Assembly: GCA_944373145.1 (NCBI GenBank) | Contig: CALWAL010000001.1 | Location: 64,105 to 128,104, forward strand | Origin: an uncultured Bacilli bacterium | GTDB taxonomy: Bacteria; Bacillota_I; Bacilli_A; RF39; UBA660 | DNA: 64,000 nucleotides | Reading direction: 5' to 3' | Shown: positions 52,004 to 63,823 of the stretch, piece after piece | How positions within the stretch are numbered: the first letter of the stretch is position 1 | Layout of the letters: each line of letters opens with the position of its first letter | The notes under the pieces: generated by a model | Database searches by the model: none | Told to the model about the DNA's origin: nothing | Seen by the model: only the letters and a program-made list of their open reading frames with translations | Made by a program: the position numbers and the translations under genes

Positions 52004-52831
52004 CTAAAATTTAATTAATAATCTTTGTCCTGCTTTAATTAAATTAGGATTATCTCCAATAATATCTTTATTTTCTTCATATAAATCTTTCCAATATACT
52101 TTATACTTCATCGCTATATCCCATAAAGTATCTCCTTTTTGAACTATATAATATTTATTATCATTGCTTAATATTTCATTAACCAAATCTTGTATCTCAT
52201 TATAATTATATCCTGCTTCTTCTAACCTTTTCTTTCGCATATTTCCATTATCCCATTTTCCTTGAATAACTTCCTTAGCAATTTCATTATTAGATTTTTT
52301 TAAATTATTACTTTTTTCTTCATAGATTTTCCATTCATATGAATTTTTAGATACTTTCACATCTGGATGTAAAAATAACGCTTTAGTTATATCATATTGA
52401 TTATTAATAAGCCAAGCATATGCTTTTACTTTTGGTTGATACTTTCCTTTATACCAACCAATTCCTTTAAATCTTCCTTTTCCTACTGCAATATGAATGT
52501 GACTACCAGTTACATTACCTTTTACTCCAGGTTGATAGTATATTTCACTTTGCTTTATCTTTTTATTAATGTATAAATCTGATACATCATTATCATGTAA
52601 TGTCATAATAGTCATATAATCAATTGTTCCATCAGCATATTCTACTTTATTTAAACTCTCTAACCATATGCCATTACAATTACTATATTTTCTTTTTATT
52701 TTACCAGTAAACGGAGCTTTTAAATATTTTAGTTTTGATATATCAATAGCTAAATCACCATTATGAGAAAAATTGCTATTCATATTTTGACTAATATATA
52801 AAACATCTACATTAAGTATAGCTTTCTCCAT
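52004..52831 (-). CDS. Peptidoglycan hydrolase: M23-like endopeptidase domain plus C-terminal LysM (endolysin-like).
   Basis: SHNGDLAID ... TGSHIHIA align with the M23 HxxxD ... HxH motifs (compare lysostaphin HYGVD ... HLHF). C-terminal LysM (YIVQKGDTLWDIAMKY...AGQRLLI). No signal peptide. Confidence 0.6.
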   Translation of the reverse strand: MEKAILNVDVLYISQNMNSNFSHNGDLAIDISKLKYLKAPFTGKIKRKYSNCNGIWLESLNKVEYADGTIDYMTIMTLHDNDVSDLYINKKIKQSEIYYQPGVKGNVTGSHIHIAVGKGRFKGIGWYKGKYQPKVKAYAWLINNQYDITKALFLHPDVKVSKNSYEWKIYEEKSNNLKKSNNEIAKEVIQGKWDNGNMRKKRLEEAGYNYNEIQDLVNEILSNDNKYYIVQKGDTLWDIAMKYKVYWKDLYEENKDIIGDNPNLIKAGQRLLIKF

Positions 52832-53024
52832 TTAACTTCTCCTGTATTAAATTTAAAACTGCACTTATTCCCATAGCAATCGCACCTACCATCATAGATT
52901 TAACTAGATCAAAATTAGATAAATCTGTAGTTGGTAAAACAACAATGATGCTTGCGATGAAGCCTTCTATAAATGTTTTAAGCACTTTGCCAAGTAACTT
53001 GTCGTTCAATATTTTCTTTAACAT
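52812..53024 (-). CDS. Holin-like small membrane protein (phiLC3-type topology).
   Basis: 70 aa. Basic N-terminus, two hydrophobic helices separated by a PTTDLSNF turn, polar C-terminus. Overlaps the lysin gene start. Confidence 0.5.
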   Translation of the reverse strand: MLKKILNDKLLGKVLKTFIEGFIASIIVVLPTTDLSNFDLVKSMMVGAIAMGISAVLNLIQEKLNGESYT

Positions 53025-53391
53025 CTTCTACCTCCTTTAACTCACTAGGTAATTTATATAATTCATCAACCATATTTTTAGCAAATATATCACCTTCAAA
53101 GTGTTGATAATTCCTATAAATTTCACTAATATTATCTTTCATATAATTAGGACAGTATCCTAATTCCATATATTTTTCATATATTCTAATAATTTCATTT
53201 TTTAGTAATGCTTTTAAGCCATTTTTTAAACTCATATAACCTTTTAACATATAAGCTACACTAGAACTTATAATTGTAAAAAGTATCTCTAACCAATACT
53301 TTAAAATAAACTCAATCATATATATCACCTCTTCAAGATAAAAATGGAGATATCGCTTGATATCTCCGAAATAAAACCTAAAAATTTTCAT
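52978..53391 (-). CDS. Small membrane protein of phage-lysis-cassette type (XhlA/BhlA-like?). The true start is probably the internal MIEFILKY.
   Basis: N-terminal TM (WLEILFTIISSSVAYML) followed by a charged helical tail. Sits directly upstream of the holin-like gene. Confidence 0.35.
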   Translation of the reverse strand: MKIFRFYFGDIKRYLHFYLEEVIYMIEFILKYWLEILFTIISSSVAYMLKGYMSLKNGLKALLKNEIIRIYEKYMELGYCPNYMKDNISEIYRNYQHFEGDIFAKNMVDELYKLPSELKEVEDVKENIERQVTWQSA

Positions 53392-53821
53392 CTATGATGT
53401 ATATAAAATTACTATTATATGGCCATAAAATATGCAATCGATCTCGCCCATTATTAGCAGTTTCATAATAATATAAGCATTTTTCATCTATTCGTGGAAT
53501 ATTTTTTTCTAAATTTAACTCATTCATAAATATTTCATTCAATAAAACTTTTTTTTCTTCTTCAATATACCTCCATTCAAGTTTTAGAAGTTCTTTCTTC
53601 TTATTGTCGTCAGCATATTCATAAACACTATACTTAGTATAATCAGAAAAATAAAATTTCTCCTGATAATATATTACATAGTCAGGCACCGGAATCTTAA
53701 CTTCATACTTTATTTTCATTTTTTCATAATGGCTTAGCATATGATTATTATCAACAGATACGAATAAAATACTAAGACAAATCATAACTAAAACAAATAT
53801 TAAAAAAAGAAATTTTTTCAT
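53378..53821 (-). CDS. Candidate Rhs-toxin immunity protein (membrane-anchored or secreted, 147 aa).
   Basis: Located immediately 3' of the Rhs toxin gene. N-terminal signal/TM (FLFLIFVLVMICLSILFV). Confidence 0.45.
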   Translation of the reverse strand: MKKFLFLIFVLVMICLSILFVSVDNNHMLSHYEKMKIKYEVKIPVPDYVIYYQEKFYFSDYTKYSVYEYADDNKKKELLKLEWRYIEEEKKVLLNEIFMNELNLEKNIPRIDEKCLYYYETANNGRDRLHILWPYNSNFIYIIDENF

Positions 53822-53842: not shown

Positions 53843-56800
53843 TTACCATTCATAATTGCATTTGCTAACATCACCAATAATATAAATTGAAAAATCGGTT
53901 TCCCAATAATATGGGGTTAAAATACCCATATCTTGCCACATATACCCCAAATTATTAGCAAATCCAGAAAAAGTACTATCATCTCGCCATTCATCAAAAT
54001 CATATGTATCATATACCTTAACATCAATAAACCAAACATCTTCACACTTTTCTGATTGATAACCATATATTTCAAAATTTGCTTTTCCAACCCCGTTTTT
54101 CAAATTAGATGTTGAAGAAAAATTTTTACTTGAAACAACAGTAAATTTGCCATTTTTACTGTTTTTGATGCCCTTGCTTATTTCTTCATTTATCTCTTTA
54201 GAACTTCCTAACTCGTTGGTTAACTCAATATAAATATCAGTCGACAATTTTTTTCCTTTTCCTTTGGCTGAATGATTCAACATTTTACTAGCTAATTCAA
54301 CCTTTTCAAATTTAGATAAAAAATAATTTCCTATTTTTATTGCTAATTTAGTCAACCATCTAATTCCAAAACCATTTTTATCTATGTTATTAATATAGTC
54401 GTTGCTACAATAAGCATATAAATTTAGGCTCATTATATCTTGATTAGAGGCCATAATACCATCTGCGTTTAAAAATCTACCAAATGTAGTACTGTAATAT
54501 CTACTATTTAAATAATATAAGTTAGTTTCATTATCATAATAGTAACTCCTATATCTAAATGGATTTATAATACCTATATGATTACTATCTGTGATATCAT
54601 TACCATTACTATCTTTAATAGATAATATGTTTCCCCAACTGTCATATCGATATTTAACTATTAAATTACAATTACTATCCAATATTCCTATAATATCTTT
54701 TTGTATATTTTTAACATAATAGTACACATCATTATTATATTTAAAACCTATCAAATCGTCCATACTATTACGTATATAGTATATCACATTATTATTTCTT
54801 TTTTCAAATATAATTGATGTTCCCTCAAGATAATATTCGGTTTTTACTCCATTTACTGTTTTACCAATTCTAATACCATTACTATTATATTTGTAAGTGT
54901 TATTATTATAACTATTTAATTGTCTACCATTTATCCATGTTAATGTATTATTTCCAATTGTTAATGGATTACCTATATCATCATAGGAAATTGTTAAATC
55001 ATTAAATTTAGTTAACTGATCTTTCCAATTAGAATTATTGTACTCATATTTATCTTCTAATTTAATATCATAATTATTCATATCTAGTACTTTTCTATTT
55101 AAGATATTTCCAAATTTATCATAGGTATATTTGATAATTTCTTTATCAATATAATTATTCTCTTCAATTAATTGATTATATTTATCATATCTATACTCAT
55201 TTTCCAAAATGTTATTATGATATATATGTGTGATATTATTTAACTTATCATACTTATATTTATAAATATCATTATTATTTTTTATACTATCGATTAATAA
55301 AGATGTTCTATTACCATTTGTTAAATATGTGTATGTTGTATTAAAAACATTGCTAATATTTCTATTTATTAATCTTCCTAATGAATCATAATTATAATTA
55401 ATACTATTATTATCAAATTCAGTTTTTACAATTGCATCTTCTTTATTTAAAATATTAGTAATACTATTCTGAACGTTATCTAAACTGTGTTCTTTACCGA
55501 TTACATTATCGCAAGTATCATAAATATATTTTACTTCAAATTCATTAAATTTATATAAATTTAATTTTTGTGACAAATCATACGCATATTTATAAATATC
55601 ACTATTAGTTTCTAATTTAACTAGATTACCTTGATTATCATAACTATATTTATATGTATCATTTGATTTAATTATTGTTTTAACTCTATCGAAATTATCA
55701 TATGCATAACTAATAATATGACCATTACCATATGTAGAAGATATCAGATTACCGTTATTTTCTTCATAATGGTTTGTAACTAAAGTAATATTATCTCCAA
55801 TTTTAATTTCTTTAATGTTTAAAAATTCATCATAAACAAAATTATATTCTTTATCATCATCTTTTATTTTAGATAATACATTATTAGAATTATAGGTATA
55901 ATTTATTTTTTTATCACCTTGATTAATTTCAATAACTCTCTTTTTATCATCATAAGTGTAAGAGGTTACTTTTCCTTTAGGATTAGTTATTGAATTTAGT
56001 AATCCAGTCAGTAAATCAATATCATATGTCATTTTGTTTAAATTAGAATCTGTTACACTTTTTATAAATTTACTATCTTCAGTGTATTCAGCACTACTTT
56101 CAATAAATTCATTTTCTATAGTTTCAATGTAAAATTCAAAATTTGGATCCTGTTCTATTAACTCTGATATAAATAGAATATTATTTTCTCTTTTAATATA
56201 TCTAGGCAAATTACTTTCAACTGTATCATTTTCATCGCGATATAATTGGAAATAATAGCTTCCATTTTCTTGCTCTATTAATTTAAATAGTGAATTATTT
56301 AAATTATTTGGAGCTAATACAATCTGATTAGATGTAGCAGTAAAATAATTATCGCCTATTACATTATGATTAATTGTATAATAGCCATTTTCTAATAAGG
56401 TAAATTGCCATAAATCATGATTACACTCCTCATCATCAAAAACAATTGCTTTATTGATATTTTTTAAATAATCATTAGTTCCTTTACATCTAATACGATA
56501 TAAACCATTAGTTATTTCATTTGGAATTTTGTTAACAATTTTAGTAATAATCGGATTGCCAAAACTATCATACTTAATGGTATTATTAATTCCAGTTTCT
56601 GAGATTCCATTTAAAATACGTTCTGACTTTAAATTATCATATTCGTATTTTAAATTTTTTCCTTGCGGATCAGTCATTTTGATCAATTGATTGTTTGAAT
56701 CATATTTAAAATTACTTGTCTCATTTGATAAATTTGATATTGTTGATACGTTACCATTTCCATCATAATTATAATTGATTTCTCTAGGATCTTTAAACAT

Positions 56801-59800
56801 ACAAATATTTGTAATATACATATCGTTAAAATTTAAAGCTTGATTAAATTCTAATGTTATACCATCATAATCTAGCATAGCTACAAAAGTGTAACGATAA
56901 TATTGCCATTCTTCGCATTTAGAATTAATTTTATCTGGCATAAGTATTCCTGTACCCAAATCAGATTCTTCAATGTAATTAAATCCTACACTTACACTAT
57001 TTTGAATACTATCGTATAAATCAATACCTGTTATACCTTCATTTTTATACCAAAAAGATACTTCATAAACATCTCCTGTTTTCCCTTTAATTGGAAAGAT
57101 TTTAGAAATTGTTGAATTCTTAGTCGGTGCCATTGATATTTTAAGTGCTTTATCATCATTATCATTAATTGACACAACATTAAAACATTCACTATTATCA
57201 ATAGTTGTAATTTCAGAGTCCTCTGTTGGGCCACTAGGACTTAATTCACTATATTCACTAGCACTTAATGTCCAATCAGAATATCCTAAAGAAAAGTCGG
57301 AATTAGATAGCATATTATAATTATTTACTATCTCTCCTTCTTCTAATTGAATATCATCAATATAAAAAGTTGTGCTGTCAGGTAATATAAATCTTATTTT
57401 TAAACTAGAGATTGCTTCTTCAGGATAAAAGATAGTTATATCGTGTCGTTTAAATTCATCAGATGCTTTAATAATTTCTTCTTTTACTACACTATCATAT
57501 GATAATGATAATGTTATATTTTGATTATTTTTAATATAAGCACTGAAAGTATAATATTTACCCTTTGATACATTTACTTCTTGATAAAAATTAGAAGTTG
57601 CTTTTAAACTTTTTAAACCATTATTTACATATTCTGTAGATAATGTTAATTCATTTTCTTCTGTTATAAAATTAATTGTATTTTCTTCAAAACTTGTATT
57701 AGATAGTAAATTATTAACATACTTAATTGGCATATATGAGTCAATTACTTTATTTTTATATGGATTGCTTGAATCAACTACTTCAGTCTCCAAATATCTA
57801 TTAGCTATAGAATAAGCACCTTTTAAATTAGTACTATCAATTAGACTACTACTAGATATTAAATTACCATTATTATTAAAAGTCATTGTTTGAACTCTAT
57901 TTTTATTATCTTTAATAGTTGTTGTATTATACGAATATGTCATGTCAAATGATTGACCTAAAGTATCATTAATACTATACTCTGATACTTTTTTAATACG
58001 ATATGGTATTTGATCATAATATTCATATTTTATCTTTAATCCATTAATATCTGTAATATACTCAATTAAAGAATTAGAATTATATGTGAACATAGTTTGT
58101 CCTAATAAATTAGTAATATTAACTAATTTATTATTTTCATGATTTAACGTTACTGTTTCATCGGTACTCACTATAACAATACTATTTTCATTATAAATTA
58201 TATTAATTTCTGAATTATTAGGATCAATTACTTTAGTAATTCTATTGTTATCATCATAAATAACTTGTATTACTTTATTTTCGGTATCAGTAATAATTGA
58301 TAAGTACCCTATATCATTAATAATATTAAACGATGATATATTACCATATTTATCTATCATATTATATTTAGATTCTGCTTTAGTAATTGTTAAATTTAAA
58401 CCATCTTCATCAATATAATTACCTGTCGACTTATCATTTTCATCTAATTGTTCTTGAAAATAGTGAATAGTCCCATCGGCATCTATATATTTTAAATAAT
58501 TTATTTCCTCAGTAGTTTCGCCTTCCTCGGGTATTTGAATTAGTTGATGGTAATTAAATTTATATCCCTTACCAACTCCATAATCATTATCCAAAATAAC
58601 ATCATTAGTGTTATAAATTAAATTCAAACTTACAGTATTCTTTTCGGCGACAGTTCTTCCAATCTGAAATTGCCCTACTAAATTACCATTATAAGTATTA
58701 ATATTAGTATCTCCGATAGAATAACTTTGAGGTATATAATTCATATAACTTTCTAAGCCATTTTGATTTCGATAATGAATTATAAGTGTAGGAGCTAAAG
58801 ATTCATTAACATTAGAAAAAAACGCAGGGTATAATTCATCTTCATATTCTTCATTATGTGATTTTACCATCAATCCATAGTTAGGAGTACCTGAATACCA
58901 TTTTTTAACTAAATTCGTTATATCCATTTCAAGACTTCTTAATTCAACTATTTCATAAGTATTATCCCTAATAATCCAAGCACTTCTAGCTGAATATGAA
59001 TAGTTTTCTAATTTAGGATCATATTTATTGTTCATTATAGTCCAGTTTGCTGTATTCTCATTCCAATCTTGCGTTAGTCTATGAACATCAACTACATTCC
59101 AATCTATTTTTTCCAATGCTAGTGGCCCATCTCCATAATTATATAAGTTTAAGTATGACTTGATAATTTGACTTCCTGTTCCTATAGTTGGCAAATCAAA
59201 TTTTATTAAAGTTCTATTAATTATATCTTGATTATTAATTCGCTCAACACCAGCTTTTAATATATTTTGACTATTTTTATCTTTTCCTGTATCTCCTGGA
59301 TAAATATAAGTGTCATACACTTTACCTTCTTGAGTTGTATTTGTAATTATCGGATCTATGATAACTGGATATGAAGTAAGATTTAACCATTCTTCATCAA
59401 GTACTAAATCTAATAGATATCCTACTTCATTTTGTATCAAATTATAATGAATATTATAATTAATATTTTGATTATTATCTATCATGAACAATGGTTCAAA
59501 AGTAAATATACATTTATCGTTTTCTTTTGCATCTATTTTTTTATCATTAACTACTAAGTTTAAATTAGTTTTAATCAAGAAACTAATTTTATCAATATTA
59601 TTATTTTTTAAAATAATATTTTCTTTTACTTTAGTAGGTAATAATGAATATTCTAAATCAATGCCAGGTAAGATATCTTCATAAATTACTTTTTTATCTA
59701 AAAATTTACCTTTAACATTATTTTGATCGTTTAACTTAATTTCTAAAAAATAGTCATCTTTAATCATTTTCATAAGAAGTAGATTAGTATTTTCCATAAA

Positions 59801-59995
59801 CTGAACAATATAATCATTATTCTTATTTTTGTAATAATTGTTTTCTTTAATAAGAGTATTGTCTATTTCTTCATATTTATTACTTTTTTTAAAGTGGACT
59901 GGATTGCTATATACTTTAGCAATCATTTCTCCGTTTTCTTGTAAAAAATGTTTTTCCTTTTCTTTTCTCAAACCAACTATTTCAATTTCTTTCAT
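53843..59995 (-). CDS. Rhs/YD-repeat polymorphic toxin, 2050 aa, with no signal peptide.
   Basis: Many YD repeats (YxYDxxGN). Rhs core terminus ...NPFRYRSYYYDNETNLYYLNSRYYSTTFGRFLNADG. About 220-aa C-terminal variable domain. DNRLRE-like N-terminal region. Lectin-like internal modules. Strong RBS (TAGGAGG-N6-ATG). Confidence 0.85.
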   Translation of the reverse strand: MKEIEIVGLRKEKEKHFLQENGEMIAKVYSNPVHFKKSNKYEEIDNTLIKENNYYKNKNNDYIVQFMENTNLLLMKMIKDDYFLEIKLNDQNNVKGKFLDKKVIYEDILPGIDLEYSLLPTKVKENIILKNNNIDKISFLIKTNLNLVVNDKKIDAKENDKCIFTFEPLFMIDNNQNINYNIHYNLIQNEVGYLLDLVLDEEWLNLTSYPVIIDPIITNTTQEGKVYDTYIYPGDTGKDKNSQNILKAGVERINNQDIINRTLIKFDLPTIGTGSQIIKSYLNLYNYGDGPLALEKIDWNVVDVHRLTQDWNENTANWTIMNNKYDPKLENYSYSARSAWIIRDNTYEIVELRSLEMDITNLVKKWYSGTPNYGLMVKSHNEEYEDELYPAFFSNVNESLAPTLIIHYRNQNGLESYMNYIPQSYSIGDTNINTYNGNLVGQFQIGRTVAEKNTVSLNLIYNTNDVILDNDYGVGKGYKFNYHQLIQIPEEGETTEEINYLKYIDADGTIHYFQEQLDENDKSTGNYIDEDGLNLTITKAESKYNMIDKYGNISSFNIINDIGYLSIITDTENKVIQVIYDDNNRITKVIDPNNSEINIIYNENSIVIVSTDETVTLNHENNKLVNITNLLGQTMFTYNSNSLIEYITDINGLKIKYEYYDQIPYRIKKVSEYSINDTLGQSFDMTYSYNTTTIKDNKNRVQTMTFNNNGNLISSSSLIDSTNLKGAYSIANRYLETEVVDSSNPYKNKVIDSYMPIKYVNNLLSNTSFEENTINFITEENELTLSTEYVNNGLKSLKATSNFYQEVNVSKGKYYTFSAYIKNNQNITLSLSYDSVVKEEIIKASDEFKRHDITIFYPEEAISSLKIRFILPDSTTFYIDDIQLEEGEIVNNYNMLSNSDFSLGYSDWTLSASEYSELSPSGPTEDSEITTIDNSECFNVVSINDNDDKALKISMAPTKNSTISKIFPIKGKTGDVYEVSFWYKNEGITGIDLYDSIQNSVSVGFNYIEESDLGTGILMPDKINSKCEEWQYYRYTFVAMLDYDGITLEFNQALNFNDMYITNICMFKDPREINYNYDGNGNVSTISNLSNETSNFKYDSNNQLIKMTDPQGKNLKYEYDNLKSERILNGISETGINNTIKYDSFGNPIITKIVNKIPNEITNGLYRIRCKGTNDYLKNINKAIVFDDEECNHDLWQFTLLENGYYTINHNVIGDNYFTATSNQIVLAPNNLNNSLFKLIEQENGSYYFQLYRDENDTVESNLPRYIKRENNILFISELIEQDPNFEFYIETIENEFIESSAEYTEDSKFIKSVTDSNLNKMTYDIDLLTGLLNSITNPKGKVTSYTYDDKKRVIEINQGDKKINYTYNSNNVLSKIKDDDKEYNFVYDEFLNIKEIKIGDNITLVTNHYEENNGNLISSTYGNGHIISYAYDNFDRVKTIIKSNDTYKYSYDNQGNLVKLETNSDIYKYAYDLSQKLNLYKFNEFEVKYIYDTCDNVIGKEHSLDNVQNSITNILNKEDAIVKTEFDNNSINYNYDSLGRLINRNISNVFNTTYTYLTNGNRTSLLIDSIKNNNDIYKYKYDKLNNITHIYHNNILENEYRYDKYNQLIEENNYIDKEIIKYTYDKFGNILNRKVLDMNNYDIKLEDKYEYNNSNWKDQLTKFNDLTISYDDIGNPLTIGNNTLTWINGRQLNSYNNNTYKYNSNGIRIGKTVNGVKTEYYLEGTSIIFEKRNNNVIYYIRNSMDDLIGFKYNNDVYYYVKNIQKDIIGILDSNCNLIVKYRYDSWGNILSIKDSNGNDITDSNHIGIINPFRYRSYYYDNETNLYYLNSRYYSTTFGRFLNADGIMASNQDIMSLNLYAYCSNDYINNIDKNGFGIRWLTKLAIKIGNYFLSKFEKVELASKMLNHSAKGKGKKLSTDIYIELTNELGSSKEINEEISKGIKNSKNGKFTVVSSKNFSSTSNLKNGVGKANFEIYGYQSEKCEDVWFIDVKVYDTYDFDEWRDDSTFSGFANNLGYMWQDMGILTPYYWETDFSIYIIGDVSKCNYEW

Positions 59996-60015
59996 AGTCT
60001 ACCTCCTAGTCAATT

Positions 60016-61191
60016 CTAAGCAACTCTTTTCCATAAAAATTTATCACAGTAGCTATCTATCATTAAATCTTTAGCAAGTGTAATGTTAAACATCAAATAA
60101 TAAGATTTACCACTAGATGTTGAAGTATTATTAAATACATCTATTTGAGTCACTGTACCATTAGAGTATCCAACATTATATACAATTCCTGTATTACTAG
60201 CATCACTATAAGCTAATAATCCAAATAAACTCATACCCAAAGAAACTATTCCAAGATTTGATAAATTAAAGGAACCTAATTCACAACTATTATCGTTTAA
60301 AATTTTATTCACAGTAACTAATTGCCTAACATATAAATTATGTCCAGATCGGCATATATAGCAAGTACTACCTGATACATTAGTACCTGGAGTGAAATAT
60401 GTGGTATCACTAACTGAATTAATTGTTGATTGAAATTCTTTATCTATCAATTCCCATAATCCACCAAAATAGTTTGTTGGATTATTATTAGTATTAGAAG
60501 TATATATACTTCCAACTGGATAAGCATTTAAAATATCAAAAGTTGGATTATTATTACTAGTAATGCTATTAACAACTAAATTTCCATTTGCATCCAAACT
60601 AAACTTATTATTTTTAGATGTAATACAATCAACAGTAGCGTTATTAACTTCTAAATTTAATTTATTTTCTGTTTTAGTAAATGCATCTTTAAAATAAATA
60701 TCTTCTAATGAAAAATCGCCTTTATTTTTATATTTGTGATTTGCATAAATAGCATTGTTTAAAAAATATTTATTCATATCATTGTTTTTAGGATAAATAA
60801 CTTCGATATCAGCACCACTATAATTTGTATAAATATAGTTAGTACCTTCAAATAAACAAACTAATAGAGTATCAACTTCCTCTACTGTTTCATCTAATCT
60901 AGTGACAGTAGTTTTCATTGCAATATCATTATCTTTAACTACTAAATTCATTTTAAATACATCGCTAGACTCACTAAACTGTAAAGCATTACTTAAATTA
61001 AAAATATATTCCCTTCTATTTTCTGTAGGAGTTGTAGAATTTTGTGTATCTACATATACAATTAAATCATTTGAAGTTGGCACTACAGTTGCACTATTTC
61101 TTTTTACTTGTAATTCTAATAATGGTGCATCTAAAGAATCATTAATAACTAATTCTCCTACACCGGTTAATTTTTGATCATCTAAATTCAT
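60016..61191 (-). CDS. Phage tail-collar/tail-fiber-like protein (391 aa).
   Basis: C-terminal AYPVGSIYTSNTNNNPTNYFGGLWELI resembles the phage tail collar domain consensus (PvGtI...P.G.L.CdG). Asn/Thr-rich beta region. No signal peptide. Lies 20 nt upstream of the Rhs gene. Confidence 0.45.
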   Translation of the reverse strand: MNLDDQKLTGVGELVINDSLDAPLLELQVKRNSATVVPTSNDLIVYVDTQNSTTPTENRREYIFNLSNALQFSESSDVFKMNLVVKDNDIAMKTTVTRLDETVEEVDTLLVCLFEGTNYIYTNYSGADIEVIYPKNNDMNKYFLNNAIYANHKYKNKGDFSLEDIYFKDAFTKTENKLNLEVNNATVDCITSKNNKFSLDANGNLVVNSITSNNNPTFDILNAYPVGSIYTSNTNNNPTNYFGGLWELIDKEFQSTINSVSDTTYFTPGTNVSGSTCYICRSGHNLYVRQLVTVNKILNDNSCELGSFNLSNLGIVSLGMSLFGLLAYSDASNTGIVYNVGYSNGTVTQIDVFNNTSTSSGKSYYLMFNITLAKDLMIDSYCDKFLWKRVA

Positions 61192-61573
61192 TTGTTTTTC
61201 CCTCCTTATTAATCAAAAATTTCTTCACTTCACAATTAAGCGGTTGATAGCTAATCAACTCCATAGGGATTCCACCTTCTTGAGTTTCACAAGACTACTA
61301 GAATAGAAGTATCATTATTGCTATTGTTTGTTATCGCATTATTAATAGCTACTTAATATTTATAACCAAGTATTAATCGCAAGCGTACTTGTTAACGTGC
61401 TAGAACAATAGGAATGTACTTAATTGTGTATATTAAATTGTCAAAGAGCATATATAGAGAAGGAATCTTTTATCAATAGTCACTTTAAATGAATAATCAA
61501 AATATAAAAAAAGGTATATAGTGATAATTTTATTCCTTCACTATATACCTCACTAAAAAGCTAAAAGTATAGT

Positions 61574-62032
61574 CTAAAATTTTAAATTTTTTAATATTCT
61601 TTTTAAACCGGCATTTATACTAAACTTTATTGCCATTTTTGTACAGTTCTCAATTTGAGCAATTTCCTCCAAAGTCATTTCTTCAAAATAATATAACTTT
61701 AATCTCTTTTTTTGAACTTCTGGTAATTTTTCTATTTCTTGATAAAGTCTTTCATAAACAATTTTTTCTAATACTATATCTTCTAATAGTTTTTGTTGAC
61801 CTTTAACTTTATGATATAAAATCTCATCACAGTATTCATATGAGACAAGATGGCGATCATATTCGTTCATTTCTTTTATTGTATCTAATTCAAATTGATT
61901 AAACTCTTTATATAATTCATCACTTATTTTTATTGATTGCTTATTACCCCTACTATCTATAAAAGTTAGCAAATGATCAACTTCCAATGTGTATGGATTG
62001 TCCTTTACTTTTCTTCTTTTTGGTAAATTCAT
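61574..62032 (-). CDS. Sigma-70 region-4-like HTH regulator (TcdR/UviA- or Tn916 Orf7-like small sigma-type protein).
   Basis: C-terminal KKRLKLYYFEEMTLEEIAQIENCTKMAIKFSINAGLKRILKNL matches the sigma region 4.2 pattern (compare TcdR ...KLYY...SRQ..NK...ALRKL). No convincing region 2. Confidence 0.5.
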   Translation of the reverse strand: MNLPKRRKVKDNPYTLEVDHLLTFIDSRGNKQSIKISDELYKEFNQFELDTIKEMNEYDRHLVSYEYCDEILYHKVKGQQKLLEDIVLEKIVYERLYQEIEKLPEVQKKRLKLYYFEEMTLEEIAQIENCTKMAIKFSINAGLKRILKNLKF

Positions 62033-62251: not shown

Positions 62252-62977
62252 TTACCAAGTTCCAGACCAAGTAACACTTGCTTGTGATATCTCATCAAAA
62301 TAATCTAAAACGGAACTATCATATTGAATCCCTGCATTACTAATATTAAAGTTTCGTGCTTGAGTTGTAGTCACTGTTCGAATAGCATGAGAATAGTCAC
62401 CAGAAGCTTGTTGAGCAATAACTGTAGAAGAAGGGTTTCTTTTTTCTACATCAAAATAAAATGTCTGCTCAAGAGATTCTAAATCACCACTTGGAACTTT
62501 AAAAGTTGCTGCCGAACCCGTATCTGTTATTTTTTCATAATATGAACTAATAGTTCTACAATCATCATCCACTGGACAATATGTTTGGCTAAAATGAGTA
62601 GAACCTCTTATGATAACGCTACTATAATGTCCAATACCGATTGTATCATAACTTCTTACTTTAGGAATATTACGCCATTCTAACGTAGCTTTATATCTAT
62701 AATAATTACCATTAGTTAAAAGATAAGTAGTTAGCTTTTTATAAGTAGTTATAGTACTAGTGGAGGCTAATGGCATAATATTTGGATTAAAAGCTTCGTA
62801 TTCCTCCTGAGTAATTTCCTCTGTAATAGCATAATTACTAGAAGCTCTTGTCAAATTAGAGTCATATATTGTTGTCTTAAAATATTTTTCTTCTTTTGAT
62901 ATTTCTTCAAATTTCAAAGCATTTCCAGTGATTGGCAGAGCAAATAATAATGCTAACATAATTAAAATTTTTTTCAT
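62252..62977 (-). CDS. Secreted protein of unknown function (signal peptide).
   Basis: MKKILIMLALLFALPITGNA signal sequence. Thr/Ser-rich. Confidence 0.5.
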   Translation of the reverse strand: MKKILIMLALLFALPITGNALKFEEISKEEKYFKTTIYDSNLTRASSNYAITEEITQEEYEAFNPNIMPLASTSTITTYKKLTTYLLTNGNYYRYKATLEWRNIPKVRSYDTIGIGHYSSVIIRGSTHFSQTYCPVDDDCRTISSYYEKITDTGSAATFKVPSGDLESLEQTFYFDVEKRNPSSTVIAQQASGDYSHAIRTVTTTQARNFNISNAGIQYDSSVLDYFDEISQASVTWSGTW

Positions 62978-63088: not shown

Positions 63089-63823
63089 TTATTTGGATTC
63101 AACCAAATATAAATCAAATGAAATATCTTGAATTTTATCATTTTCTTTATATTCAATATATAATATCAAATTATCTAACAATATTAAATCTTCAGAATTC
63201 TTTAACAATTCATCGACATATAATGTATATGTTTCTAAAAAATCACGCAATTTCATTTCTTTGTCAAAATTATATATCTCATTTTTTATTATTTTATCAT
63301 TGGAAAGCAACTTTACATAGTATGATTTAGAACTAATCTCATCTGTTGTTCCTTCATTATAGTCACTGTATTCTATATTTCTTAACACTATAATATTTCT
63401 ATGCGGATTTAATACTACTATCCCCTCTAAATTTAAATTACTATTACTAGAATAAACTTTAAATACTTTATATTGATTATACTTATTAATCGAAAAAAAT
63501 AATATTGAAAGTAAAAGTATAATTAAAATAGCTATTATAGCAGATATTAATATTCTTTTCTTACCTCTATTGTTGTAATACTTTAATGCTTCTATATTTA
63601 TATCTTTTTCTAAATTTCTTTCACCATTCAATAATTCTTTTACACTAATGTCTAATTTCTCACTTAAATCATTAAGAATAGAAATATCTGGTGCATTTTT
63701 TCCAGTTTCCCATCGACTTACAGTTTTATCATTTACCCCAAGCATCTCTCCAAGCTTTGCTTGAGTTAAATCTTTTTCTTTTCTTAAATTTGCTATAAAT
63801 GTTCCTACTTTATTTAAATCCAT
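63089..63823 (-). CDS. Membrane-anchored XRE-family HTH regulator with an extracytoplasmic C-terminal domain.
   Basis: N-terminal HTH (LRKEKDLTQAKLGEMLGVNDKTVSRWETGKNAPD). Single TM (ILISAIIAILIILLLSILFF). About 130-aa outside domain. Confidence 0.65.
   Translation of the reverse strand: MDLNKVGTFIANLRKEKDLTQAKLGEMLGVNDKTVSRWETGKNAPDISILNDLSEKLDISVKELLNGERNLEKDINIEALKYYNNRGKKRILISAIIAILIILLLSILFFSINKYNQYKVFKVYSSNSNLNLEGIVVLNPHRNIIVLRNIEYSDYNEGTTDEISSKSYYVKLLSNDKIIKNEIYNFDKEMKLRDFLETYTLYVDELLKNSEDLILLDNLILYIEYKENDKIQDISFDLYLVESK

Follow-up and report, generated by a model that had tools for sequence, protein, structure and literature searches.

In a 64,000-nt stretch of DNA from an uncultured Bacilli bacterium (GenBank assembly GCA_944373145.1, contig CALWAL010000001.1, positions 64,105 to 128,104; hereafter the window), we analysed a 391-aa open reading frame (ORF) that a program-made ORF list places at 60016..61191 on the minus strand, with an ATG start. 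All other window features described here are on the minus strand as well. The gene encodes a phage fibre-like protein and stands directly upstream of a gene for a 2050-aa Rhs protein (53843..59995). Read along the minus strand, the order is an XRE-type helix-turn-helix (HTH) gene, a 241-aa gene, a 152-aa sigma gene, a 382-nt leader, the fibre gene, the Rhs gene and a 147-aa ORF, followed by genes for a 113/137-aa membrane protein, a 70-aa holin and a 275-aa endolysin, and then by spoIVA. On balance, and with confidence only slightly above even, we read the 391-aa protein as a receptor-binding fibre that belongs to a compact Rhs bacteriocin system, a chromosomal cassette that is built from phage parts and whose products would be released by lysis.

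The downstream neighbour is a genuine Rhs protein. Pfam and NCBIfam models identify an RHS_repeat region (E 1.9e-32), a DNRLRE domain at residues 228-406 and an Rhs-associated core at residues 1784-1875, and the protein matches solved Rhs cocoons. Residues 1-1876 (54368..59995) comprise the DNRLRE domain, the YD-repeat shell and the core, with no signal peptide. Residues 1877-2050 (53846..54367) form a polymorphic C-terminal toxin domain with no assigned activity, for which we found no Pfam match and no usable PDB match. Among 29 full-length Rhs homologs, all lack a hydrophobic segment at the N-terminus; conservation extends to about residue 1876 (...NNIDKNG), and the last 174 residues are unrelated. 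The C-terminal domain of the window protein is only about 20% identical to those of loci L001 and L004, whose Rhs bodies are 66-100% identical; in the comparison with L004, identity is 66-92% up to about residue 1800 and about 20% beyond residue 1880, and a different ORF follows. The protein combines YD repeats, an Rhs-associated core and a variable C-terminal domain, as an Rhs/YD polymorphic toxin does.

The 20-nt gap to the Rhs start given in the initial annotation was borne out exactly. As read from the sequence, this spacer (59996..60015) holds the Rhs ribosome-binding site, a GGAGG 7 nt before the Rhs ATG, and the fibre and Rhs genes therefore appear closely coupled in one operon. The comparison with L001 adds an observation on how this pair has evolved: the first 300 Rhs residues (window 59096-59995) are 100% identical, the remaining Rhs body is 66-94% identical and the fibre is 98% identical. 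The fibre gene and the 5' end of rhs therefore make up one recombination block, and the Rhs body is mosaic.

Fibre architecture and the phage origin of the tip

The fibre can be divided into four parts. Residues 1-135 (60787..61191) form an N-terminal beta-sandwich domain that resembles distal tail proteins and the monocin tip protein. Residues 158-222 (60526..60720) are the family-defining conserved segment, FSLEDIYFKDAFTKT...SKNNKFSLDANGNLVVNSI with a shaft repeat, and the most conserved block in the homolog alignment. Residues 223-249 (60445..60525) carry the collar motif AYPVGSIYTSNTNNNPTNYFGGLWELI, which lies in the Gp10_C match and is also the recombination junction for tip swapping, as marked by a break in identity to the L004 allele and by the start of the DNA identity to a phage gene. 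Residues 250-391 (60019..60444) are the exchangeable receptor-binding head, or tip. The N-terminus (MNLDDQKLTG...) is hydrophilic, and the protein has no signal peptide.

An alignment of 25 homologs shows that the N-terminal ~222 residues are strongly conserved and end in a shaft-like repeat, SKNNKFSLDxxGNLxVNSI. After the collar motif comes a hypervariable tip of 93-147 residues, and then a conserved tail, (F/Y)xWKRxA. Some homologs have the shaft repeat in two or three copies (it is duplicated in P0009, P0015 and P0019), and remote homologs of 180-720 aa keep segment 158-222 at 50-70% identity. We propose this segment as the putative trimerisation and Rhs-docking region.

The initial annotation was correct about the 391-aa protein and the presence of the motif, but it placed the motif at the very end of the protein, whereas 142 residues follow it to the C-terminus. 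It had also likened the protein to phage tail-collar and short tail-fibre proteins, and a place in that exact family (tail collar or T4 short tail fibre) did not hold in the Pfam scan: the tail-collar family PF07484 (Collar) has no match to the fibre at E <= 0.1. Instead, PF21939 (Gp10_C, the C-terminal domain of T4 baseplate gp10) matches residues 223-290 (E 1.5e-8, 36.1 bits, gathering score 27), in an alignment that covers profile positions 5-71 of 139, i.e. the first half of the profile only. PF21939 is also the precomputed Pfam label for nearly all of 120 listed fibre homologs, and the resemblance of the collar motif is more than chance.

The head is like the receptor-binding heads of lactococcal and Listeria phages. 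A PDB sequence search with the whole fibre gave nothing usable, and a Foldseek search of PDB with a first whole-protein model, in which the tip was unmodelled, gave no significant match. The alignment behind that model mixed unrelated tips, and the tip was then modelled from a tip-specific alignment. Modelled this way, the C-terminal head has the fold of phage receptor-binding proteins, with likenesses that include the receptor-binding proteins of TP901-1 and p2, adenovirus fibre knobs and reovirus sigma-1. The protein as a whole resembles Gram-positive phage receptor-binding proteins (lactococcal bIL170, p2 and TP901-1; Listeria PSA gp15) and the collar-type domain of T4 gp10/gp11/gp12 (PF21939) in its collar motif, YPVGSIY...NP...FGG.W, as well as in its shaft repeats, its C-terminal beta-barrel head and its conserved N-terminus with a swappable tip. 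HxH repeats occur in two thirds of the tips; the window tip belongs to the minority type without them.

The origin of the tip can be traced directly to phages. A tip-only search returned two 187-aa proteins that are 80-85% identical to the tip. One of them, P0286, is encoded by the last gene of a module with a head-tail adaptor, tail terminator, sheath, tube, chaperone, tape-measure and baseplate. Over window positions 60017-60502, the DNA is 91.4% identical to the P0286 gene in L059, from inside the collar motif (60502) to the stop codon; beyond this interval, the window and the L059 phage module have nothing in common. The phage protein with the window-type tip has a different, short N-terminus. 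A sister fibre allele in L004 shows the same kind of boundary, being 93-100% identical to residue 210 and about 20% identical from residue 240; the collar motif immediately precedes this break. The HxH-type tip of that allele matched 955 GenBank phage records at up to 46% identity, most of them annotated as tail protein.

Exchange of tips is also evident across the family. Among 112 members, N-terminal and tip identities are only loosely related (r = 0.22), with many pairs that combine near-identical N-termini with unrelated tips and many pairs that do the reverse. Because of the shared DNA with P0286, the L004 break and its phage matches, and this decoupling of N-terminus and tip, we conclude that the tip is a bona fide phage receptor-binding module that is actively exchanged at the collar motif. 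Tips and toxins are swapped independently of each other, and the polymorphism of both (the fibre break, the Rhs break and the low correlation) makes a pattern typical of a targeting-plus-toxin system. In two further loci, tandem fibre paralogs precede one Rhs gene (L027 9983-12135 and L034 9352-11378), with different tips in L034, as if one cassette could carry two receptor specificities.

A conserved cassette of fibre, Rhs, candidate immunity and lysis genes

The conserved N-terminal region of the fibre defines a small family, of which a search of 1.84 billion proteins yields 218 representatives at E <= 0.001; the source databases give the fibre homologs no names. A scan of one genome per species yielded 49 loci, every one of them in a metagenome-assembled genome of gut or rumen origin. 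Their labels are mostly Bacilli, Erysipelotrichaceae or Tenericutes, and we suspect that the few Bacteroidota labels are binning errors. In 44 of these 49 loci a full-length Rhs homolog, with an alignment that includes its first residues, begins within 1.8 kb downstream on the same strand, and pairing is seen in 40 of the 43 loci with at least 2.5 kb of downstream sequence. Remote family members of 240, 517 and 723 aa again precede Rhs. Wherever the context is readable, the family N-terminal region lies beside Rhs or in Rhs-less cassette remnants, the other cases being truncated contigs, and neither in the 49 loci nor in the other readable contexts was it ever found in a phage tail module. The adjacency to Rhs, which the initial annotation had called unusual, is instead the rule for this fibre family, and co-occurrence with Rhs in related genomes, which had been suggested as a check, came out in favour of a link. 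Its proposal of a domesticated receptor-binding module is likewise backed, by the tip fold, the 91% DNA identity to a phage gene and an Rhs link that is conserved in ~45 species-level genomes.

This distribution bears on the possibility that the protein serves a phage or tailocin from elsewhere in the genome, as a spare or alternative tail fibre, and is carried in a lysis-timed operon together with an independent Rhs toxin. Its tip differs little from the one in a contractile-tail module, its N-terminal domain is like distal tail proteins and the monocin tip protein, and two loci have tandem fibre paralogs, all of which such a fibre could explain. However, if the fibre docked on a phage baseplate, the fibres of tail modules would be expected to have the same N-terminal anchor, and here that anchor is found next to Rhs and never in a tail module, while the phage protein that shares the tip begins with a different N-terminus. 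A scan of viral contigs gave as its sole match a truncated cassette beside prophage replication genes and no phage-borne copy, and a tblastn search of GenBank phages with the whole fibre gave one weak match to the N-terminal domain (27% identity, E 3e-4). That match lies in the tail-to-lysis region of a rodent gut phage and is too weak to build on. We therefore regard a spare tail fibre as quite improbable. The fibre also differs from phage tail fibres in its setting, since it lies outside any tail morphogenesis module, has no virion or tail genes nearby and has an N-terminal part specific to Rhs loci. The viral-contig match itself (L055, an IMG/VR contig, 64-1133) consists of a short fibre and a 158-aa fragment of an Rhs N-terminus, abutting genes that by eye are phage recombination/replication-like; this would fit a prophage that has integrated in or next to a cassette, or a viral contig that includes host DNA.

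The genes around the pair are conserved as well. The recurrent order, held at 34-55% protein identity, is a sigma-like gene, the fibre gene, sometimes a 116-135-aa ORF, an Rhs gene (2030-2130 aa), a variable ORF, two small membrane protein genes and a lysin gene. These cassettes adjoin unrelated housekeeping genes (spoIVA, ileS, spoVG, rlmN or rpsI), and in the window the 10 kb beyond spoIVA encode PBP1, RecU, DivIVA, PgsA, Fur and rubrerythrin. No tRNA, integrase or phage structural gene lies near the window cassette, and neither it nor the related loci have capsid, tail or baseplate genes in the cassette or its flanks. Some genomes contain two cassettes (L040 and L049 on contig CAYTKH010000003.1; L041 and L047 in one assembly), and one such pair includes a second copy from which Rhs is gone, while the sigma-like gene, part of the fibre gene and the lysis genes remain.

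As one of its options, the initial annotation had taken the fibre for a remnant of the phage whose lysis genes lie downstream. The lysis genes turn out to be part of the conserved cassette, set among housekeeping genes without phage structural genes. A version of the same idea, in which the fibre and lysis genes survive from a decaying prophage that received an Rhs toxin-immunity pair and are functionally unconnected to that pair, can draw on the phage derivation of all non-Rhs parts, on the G+C content of the cassette (24.5%, vs 29% for the rest of the window), on the degraded versions in L043, L049 and L050 and on scars in L001 and L002. Decay is nevertheless hard to reconcile with an intact ORF order at such divergence, across so many species-level genomes and unrelated chromosomal neighbourhoods, with the lack of capsid, tail, integrase or tRNA attachment features nearby, or with the ongoing exchange of tips, toxins and lysins, which points to selection. 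We consider this explanation highly improbable.

The 147-aa ORF after the Rhs gene (53378..53821) has an N-terminal membrane segment and is a candidate immunity protein, swapped when the toxin domain differs. An ORF is always present downstream of Rhs and varies together with the toxin domain; the ORFs that replace the 147-aa ORF are unrelated to it and mostly membrane-spanning, with at least one predicted membrane segment in 22 of 28 downstream ORFs. In L001, which has another toxin domain and a 98%-identical fibre, a 98%-identical fragment of the 147-aa ORF (residues 58-147; L001 5776-6168) lies upstream of the cassette, as a fusion with the first part of a response-regulator gene. In L002 (~1739-2373) the corresponding fragment is followed by fragments of the small membrane protein and lysin genes. 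These remnants look as if an earlier or displaced cassette had left them behind as scars, or as if an orphan immunity gene had been kept, and by analogy the L001 fragment resembles the orphan immunity genes of other Rhs systems.

These ORFs also speak to the target of the toxin. A fibre-Rhs pair could be aimed at eukaryotic or host cells as a virulence factor like the Tc toxins, which likewise consist of an Rhs-type cocoon with a separate receptor binder and are released by a lysis cassette (PMC10847048), and all the loci come from gut or rumen organisms. Against such a target, the variable small ORF after every Rhs gene that changes with the toxin domain, and the orphan copy in a strain with another toxin, bear the marks expected of self-immunity in competition between bacteria; in addition, the tip is common to a bacteriophage tail fibre, and Pfam and NCBIfam found no TcA-, SpvB- or TcB-type domains. 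A host-directed role thus appears very unlikely to us.

Three lysis genes close the cassette. The first encodes a small membrane protein (52978..53391; 137-aa ORF, PHROG 4105, E 4e-10) whose true start is likely Met25, at ~53319, giving 113 aa; gene calls in L001 and L004 are 113 aa long, and homologs occupy the same position in at least 12 loci. The second (52812..53024) encodes a 70-aa holin (PHROG 443, E 1.6e-3), and related loci have an ORF of 65-85 aa at this position. The third (52004..52831) encodes a 275-aa endolysin that matches Pfam CW_7 (E 3.6e-19) and LysM (E 6.4e-13) as well as several PHROG endolysin families. When we compared the window with L005, L006, L013, L019, L027 and L039, the lysins at the cassette end were non-orthologous (M23, M23+LysM, M23+PG_binding_1, GH25+LysM or CW_7+LysM), with their position kept. 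The replacement of lysins in place by non-orthologous ones suggests to us that the lysis function is under selection and not passively inherited. A holin gene and a peptidoglycan hydrolase gene adjoin genes for signal-less cargo proteins, the genetic arrangement of type 10-like release.

A terminator-like hairpin (53346..53367) lies between the candidate immunity ORF and the lysis genes and recalls the terminator that precedes colicin lysis genes. Not all loci have it, and in AT-rich DNA chance could account for it. Hairpins at the equivalent position occur in L004 (11649-11680), L025 (18207-18223), L047 (18042-18068) and L051 (18039-18065).

The lysis genes also bear on a contact-dependent alternative. 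Known Gram-positive Rhs toxins (WapA) are surface-attached contact weapons. On this reading, the fibre and Rhs proteins might leave intact cells through the holin, in the way suggested for TcdE with the large clostridial toxins, and the fibre would then anchor or present Rhs on the producer, with killing by contact as in WapA. The cassette does have holin-like proteins and two cargo proteins without signal peptides, and non-lytic, holin-dependent secretion is documented for PaLoc-type loci (PMC3369941, PMC9527704). On the other hand, a complete endolysin with wall-binding domains is present in nearly every cassette, even by way of non-orthologous replacement, which argues for real degradation of the wall; the tip is of the type that phages use to recognise target cells and is exchanged with them; and Pfam and NCBIfam found no wall-anchoring motif in the fibre or in Rhs. 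We judge contact-dependent delivery to be unlikely.

Regulatory genes and the operon leader

The small sigma-70-family protein (152 aa; 61574..62032) has region 4 and a truncated region 2. It matches Pfam Sigma70_r4_2 (E 2.7e-9), its NCBIfam sigma70-ECF score of 39.9 bits falls just under the cutoff of 42.9, and its best PDB match is SigW (residues 35-150 against residues 68-184 of 187). Its matches are only to generic sigma-70 region 4 and ECF-type models, all of them below curated cutoffs. No TcdR-family model is among its 25 best NCBIfam matches, although whether the libraries hold such a model was unchecked and no direct comparison with TcdR was made. In ~27 related loci the gene directly before the fibre gene encodes a homolog, and the protein is a candidate for a dedicated regulator of the cassette.

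Just after the sigma gene, the leader contains a terminator-like hairpin with a T-run (61505..61550; AGGTATATAGTGA...TCACTATATACCT TTTTTTT, as read from the leader). It is followed by a conserved element in the leader sequence, CTTTGACAATTTAATAT (61430..61446), which contains TTGACA. The same element occurs upstream of the fibre genes of L005, L006, L012, L014 and L017, across otherwise different leader types, and judging from its sequence it is a candidate common promoter element, with a putative -35 region.

Further along, the 5' leader of the fibre-Rhs operon contains a pemK RNA motif (Rfam RF02913) at 61261..61318, detected over the full model length at 47.1 bits (gathering 34.8, E 4.4e-6). 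The motif also scores above gathering (43.8-61 bits) at 80-230 nt upstream of the fibre gene in eight of nine related loci of what we call type A, and in none of seven loci of types B and C. It lies at 3596-3653 in L004, 9843-9900 in L007, 6106-6184 in L009, 9841-9920 in L010, 9849-9906 in L011, 9847-9913 in L016, 7113-7178 in L021 and 2391-2468 in L023. We found no text on this motif beyond its Rfam entry, and the pemK RNA, an orphan cis-regulatory candidate, gains a defined operon context here.

The other two types carry different strings upstream, namely GTCTAGTGAAAnTCCAGTA...TTATGATGAAGCTGTTAAAG in type B (L005, L006, L008, L012-L014, L017, L027 and L031) and TCTAGCGnTTnTCnAGTG...CATATAAATAnTTGTAGCA in type C (L019, L020, L026, L029, L033, L036 and L038). 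Type B and C loci have the extra 116-135-aa ORF between the fibre and Rhs genes, and the window has none. Together, these strings and the extra ORF suggest an alternative regulatory design. We also considered this ORF as a fibre chaperone and rejected the idea; it has no Pfam or PHROG family, and by eye it combines a coiled coil with a sigma-region-4-like helix-turn-helix.

Two more genes stand upstream of the sigma gene. One encodes a 241-aa protein with an apparent N-terminal signal sequence, as seen by eye (62252..62977); it has no family match in Pfam, PHROG or NCBIfam and, being conserved only in L001, L002, L004 and L016, is a lineage-specific accessory gene. The other encodes a 244-aa XRE-type HTH protein (63089..63823; Pfam HTH_3, E 1e-13) with an apparent membrane segment, again seen by eye. 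It is conserved in L002, L004 and L016 and is a lineage-specific candidate for an upstream regulator. The two proteins might form a sensing module for the cassette.

A proposed lysis-released, fibre-targeted toxin

We propose the following sequence of events for a lysis-released Rhs bacteriocin. The sigma-like factor, together with the pemK-type RNA leader in the window lineage, would turn on the operon of fibre, Rhs and membrane immunity protein. Read-through into the three lysis genes would then open a fraction of the producers, setting free the signal-less fibre and Rhs proteins. The fibre, presumably a trimer, would associate with Rhs through its family-specific N-terminal part (residues ~1-222), and its exchangeable head (~250-391), taken from the tail fibres of phages of the same bacteria, would bind a receptor on competing relatives; our guess for this receptor is a cell-wall glycopolymer. 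The toxin would thereby be concentrated on receptor-bearing cells; with most of the candidate immunity proteins being membrane proteins, its site of action there is probably the envelope. That the fibre carries or targets the Rhs toxin is what synteny and modular architecture lead us to infer.

Several points weigh against this interpretation. Co-inheritance alone would also hold the fibre and Rhs genes together, and in three exceptional loci (L043, L049 and L050) a fibre fragment is followed by lysis genes with no Rhs gene. Short-form homologs without the N-terminal beta-sandwich still precede Rhs, so this domain cannot be an essential docking element. The Rhs protein may have carbohydrate-binding inserts of its own, to judge from one weak NCBIfam GTA_spike_fiber match and a reading of the sequence, and if so, an extra receptor binder is not obviously required. 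A cocooned toxin would also have to cross or act on a monoderm envelope. Finally, all loci come from uncultured metagenome-assembled genomes, and the cassettes are known from their genes alone.

The closest parallels to the proposed cassette lie in several known systems, each of which it matches in part. The Tc (ABC) toxins of Yersinia entomophaga, with their type 10 secretion, likewise combine a signal-less Rhs/YD cocoon, a separate recognition component and an adjacent holin-endolysin cassette, and are released from a lysing subpopulation (PMC10847048). Unlike them, the cassette has no TcA pentameric translocator, SpvB or beta-propeller TcB according to Pfam and NCBIfam, and it has a candidate immunity gene and a tip shared with phages, which imply bacterial targets. 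No spanin is needed in the cassette because the host is monoderm.

A small sigma-family gene at the head of the locus, large signal-less toxins and phage-derived holin/endolysin genes are also found in the C. difficile PaLoc (TcdR/TcdE/TcdL) and in C. perfringens BCN5 (UviA/UviB), loci that pair a sigma factor with a holin (PMC3369941). In contrast to these, the sigma-like protein of the cassette is shorter (152 aa) and was placed in the TcdR group by none of the libraries used, the toxin is an Rhs protein, and there is an additional fibre gene and an RNA leader.

With WapA/Rhs toxins and bacterial teneurin-like proteins (PMC12704120, PMC13018210), the cassette shares the YD shell, a DNRLRE-type N-terminal domain, the polymorphic C-terminal toxin and a downstream gene that is a candidate for immunity. 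WapA and the teneurin-like proteins, unlike the cassette proteins, carry Sec signals and wall- or S-layer-anchoring domains. To our knowledge, neither a fibre gene apart from the toxin nor a lysis cassette has been reported alongside them.

Tailocins (R- and F-type pyocins, monocins and diffocins) are likewise chromosomal, and they use domesticated phage receptor binders to set the killing range and are released by lysis of the producer, as we propose for the cassette. They differ in having sheath, tube, tape-measure and baseplate genes, which are absent from the cassette in the window and related loci; having neither sheath nor tube nor baseplate, the cassette has no means to kill through tail puncture. 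Colicin operons also place a toxin-immunity pair ahead of lysis genes, as the cassette does with its toxin and candidate immunity genes, possibly across the terminator-like hairpin, whereas in the cassette receptor binding resides on a separate polypeptide of phage origin and the toxin lies inside an Rhs cocoon.

In the literature, a 2012 survey of polymorphic toxins lists tail-fibre repeats only within the toxin polypeptide and sets polymorphic toxins apart from colicins by their lack of reliance on lysis (PMC3482391), and the arrangement in the S8-PTS paper (PMC9424270) differs from the fibre-Rhs cassette. We found no description of a cassette of Rhs, fibre and lysis genes in the open-access literature, though an earlier description is possible. 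Taken together, these comparisons point to a conserved and, as far as we could find, undescribed variant of Rhs polymorphic toxin systems. We also put forward, as a tentative idea that falls somewhat short of even confidence, that it may represent a tail-less bacteriocin class of "fibre plus cocoon" type, in which a trimeric fibre on an Rhs container would be released by programmed lysis under a private sigma factor (with a pemK RNA in one lineage) and would carry tips stolen from phages of the same bacteria.

It has yet to be settled how Rhs and other cocooned toxins get to their targets when no type VI or Tc machine is present, notably in Gram-positive bacteria, and a 2026 paper on teneurin-like proteins calls the delivery of shell toxins without obvious machinery unresolved (PMC13018210). 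The cassette offers a concrete and testable answer from a handful of components, namely an exchangeable phage receptor binder, a lysis module and a regulator of its own. If the "fibre plus cocoon" reading is true, it would be a route of Rhs delivery without a secretion system. Receptor-binding tips are common to phages and a toxin system, which in gut communities would tie the host range of phages to the range of bacteriocins, and the cassette suggests a natural scaffold for retargetable protein antimicrobials.

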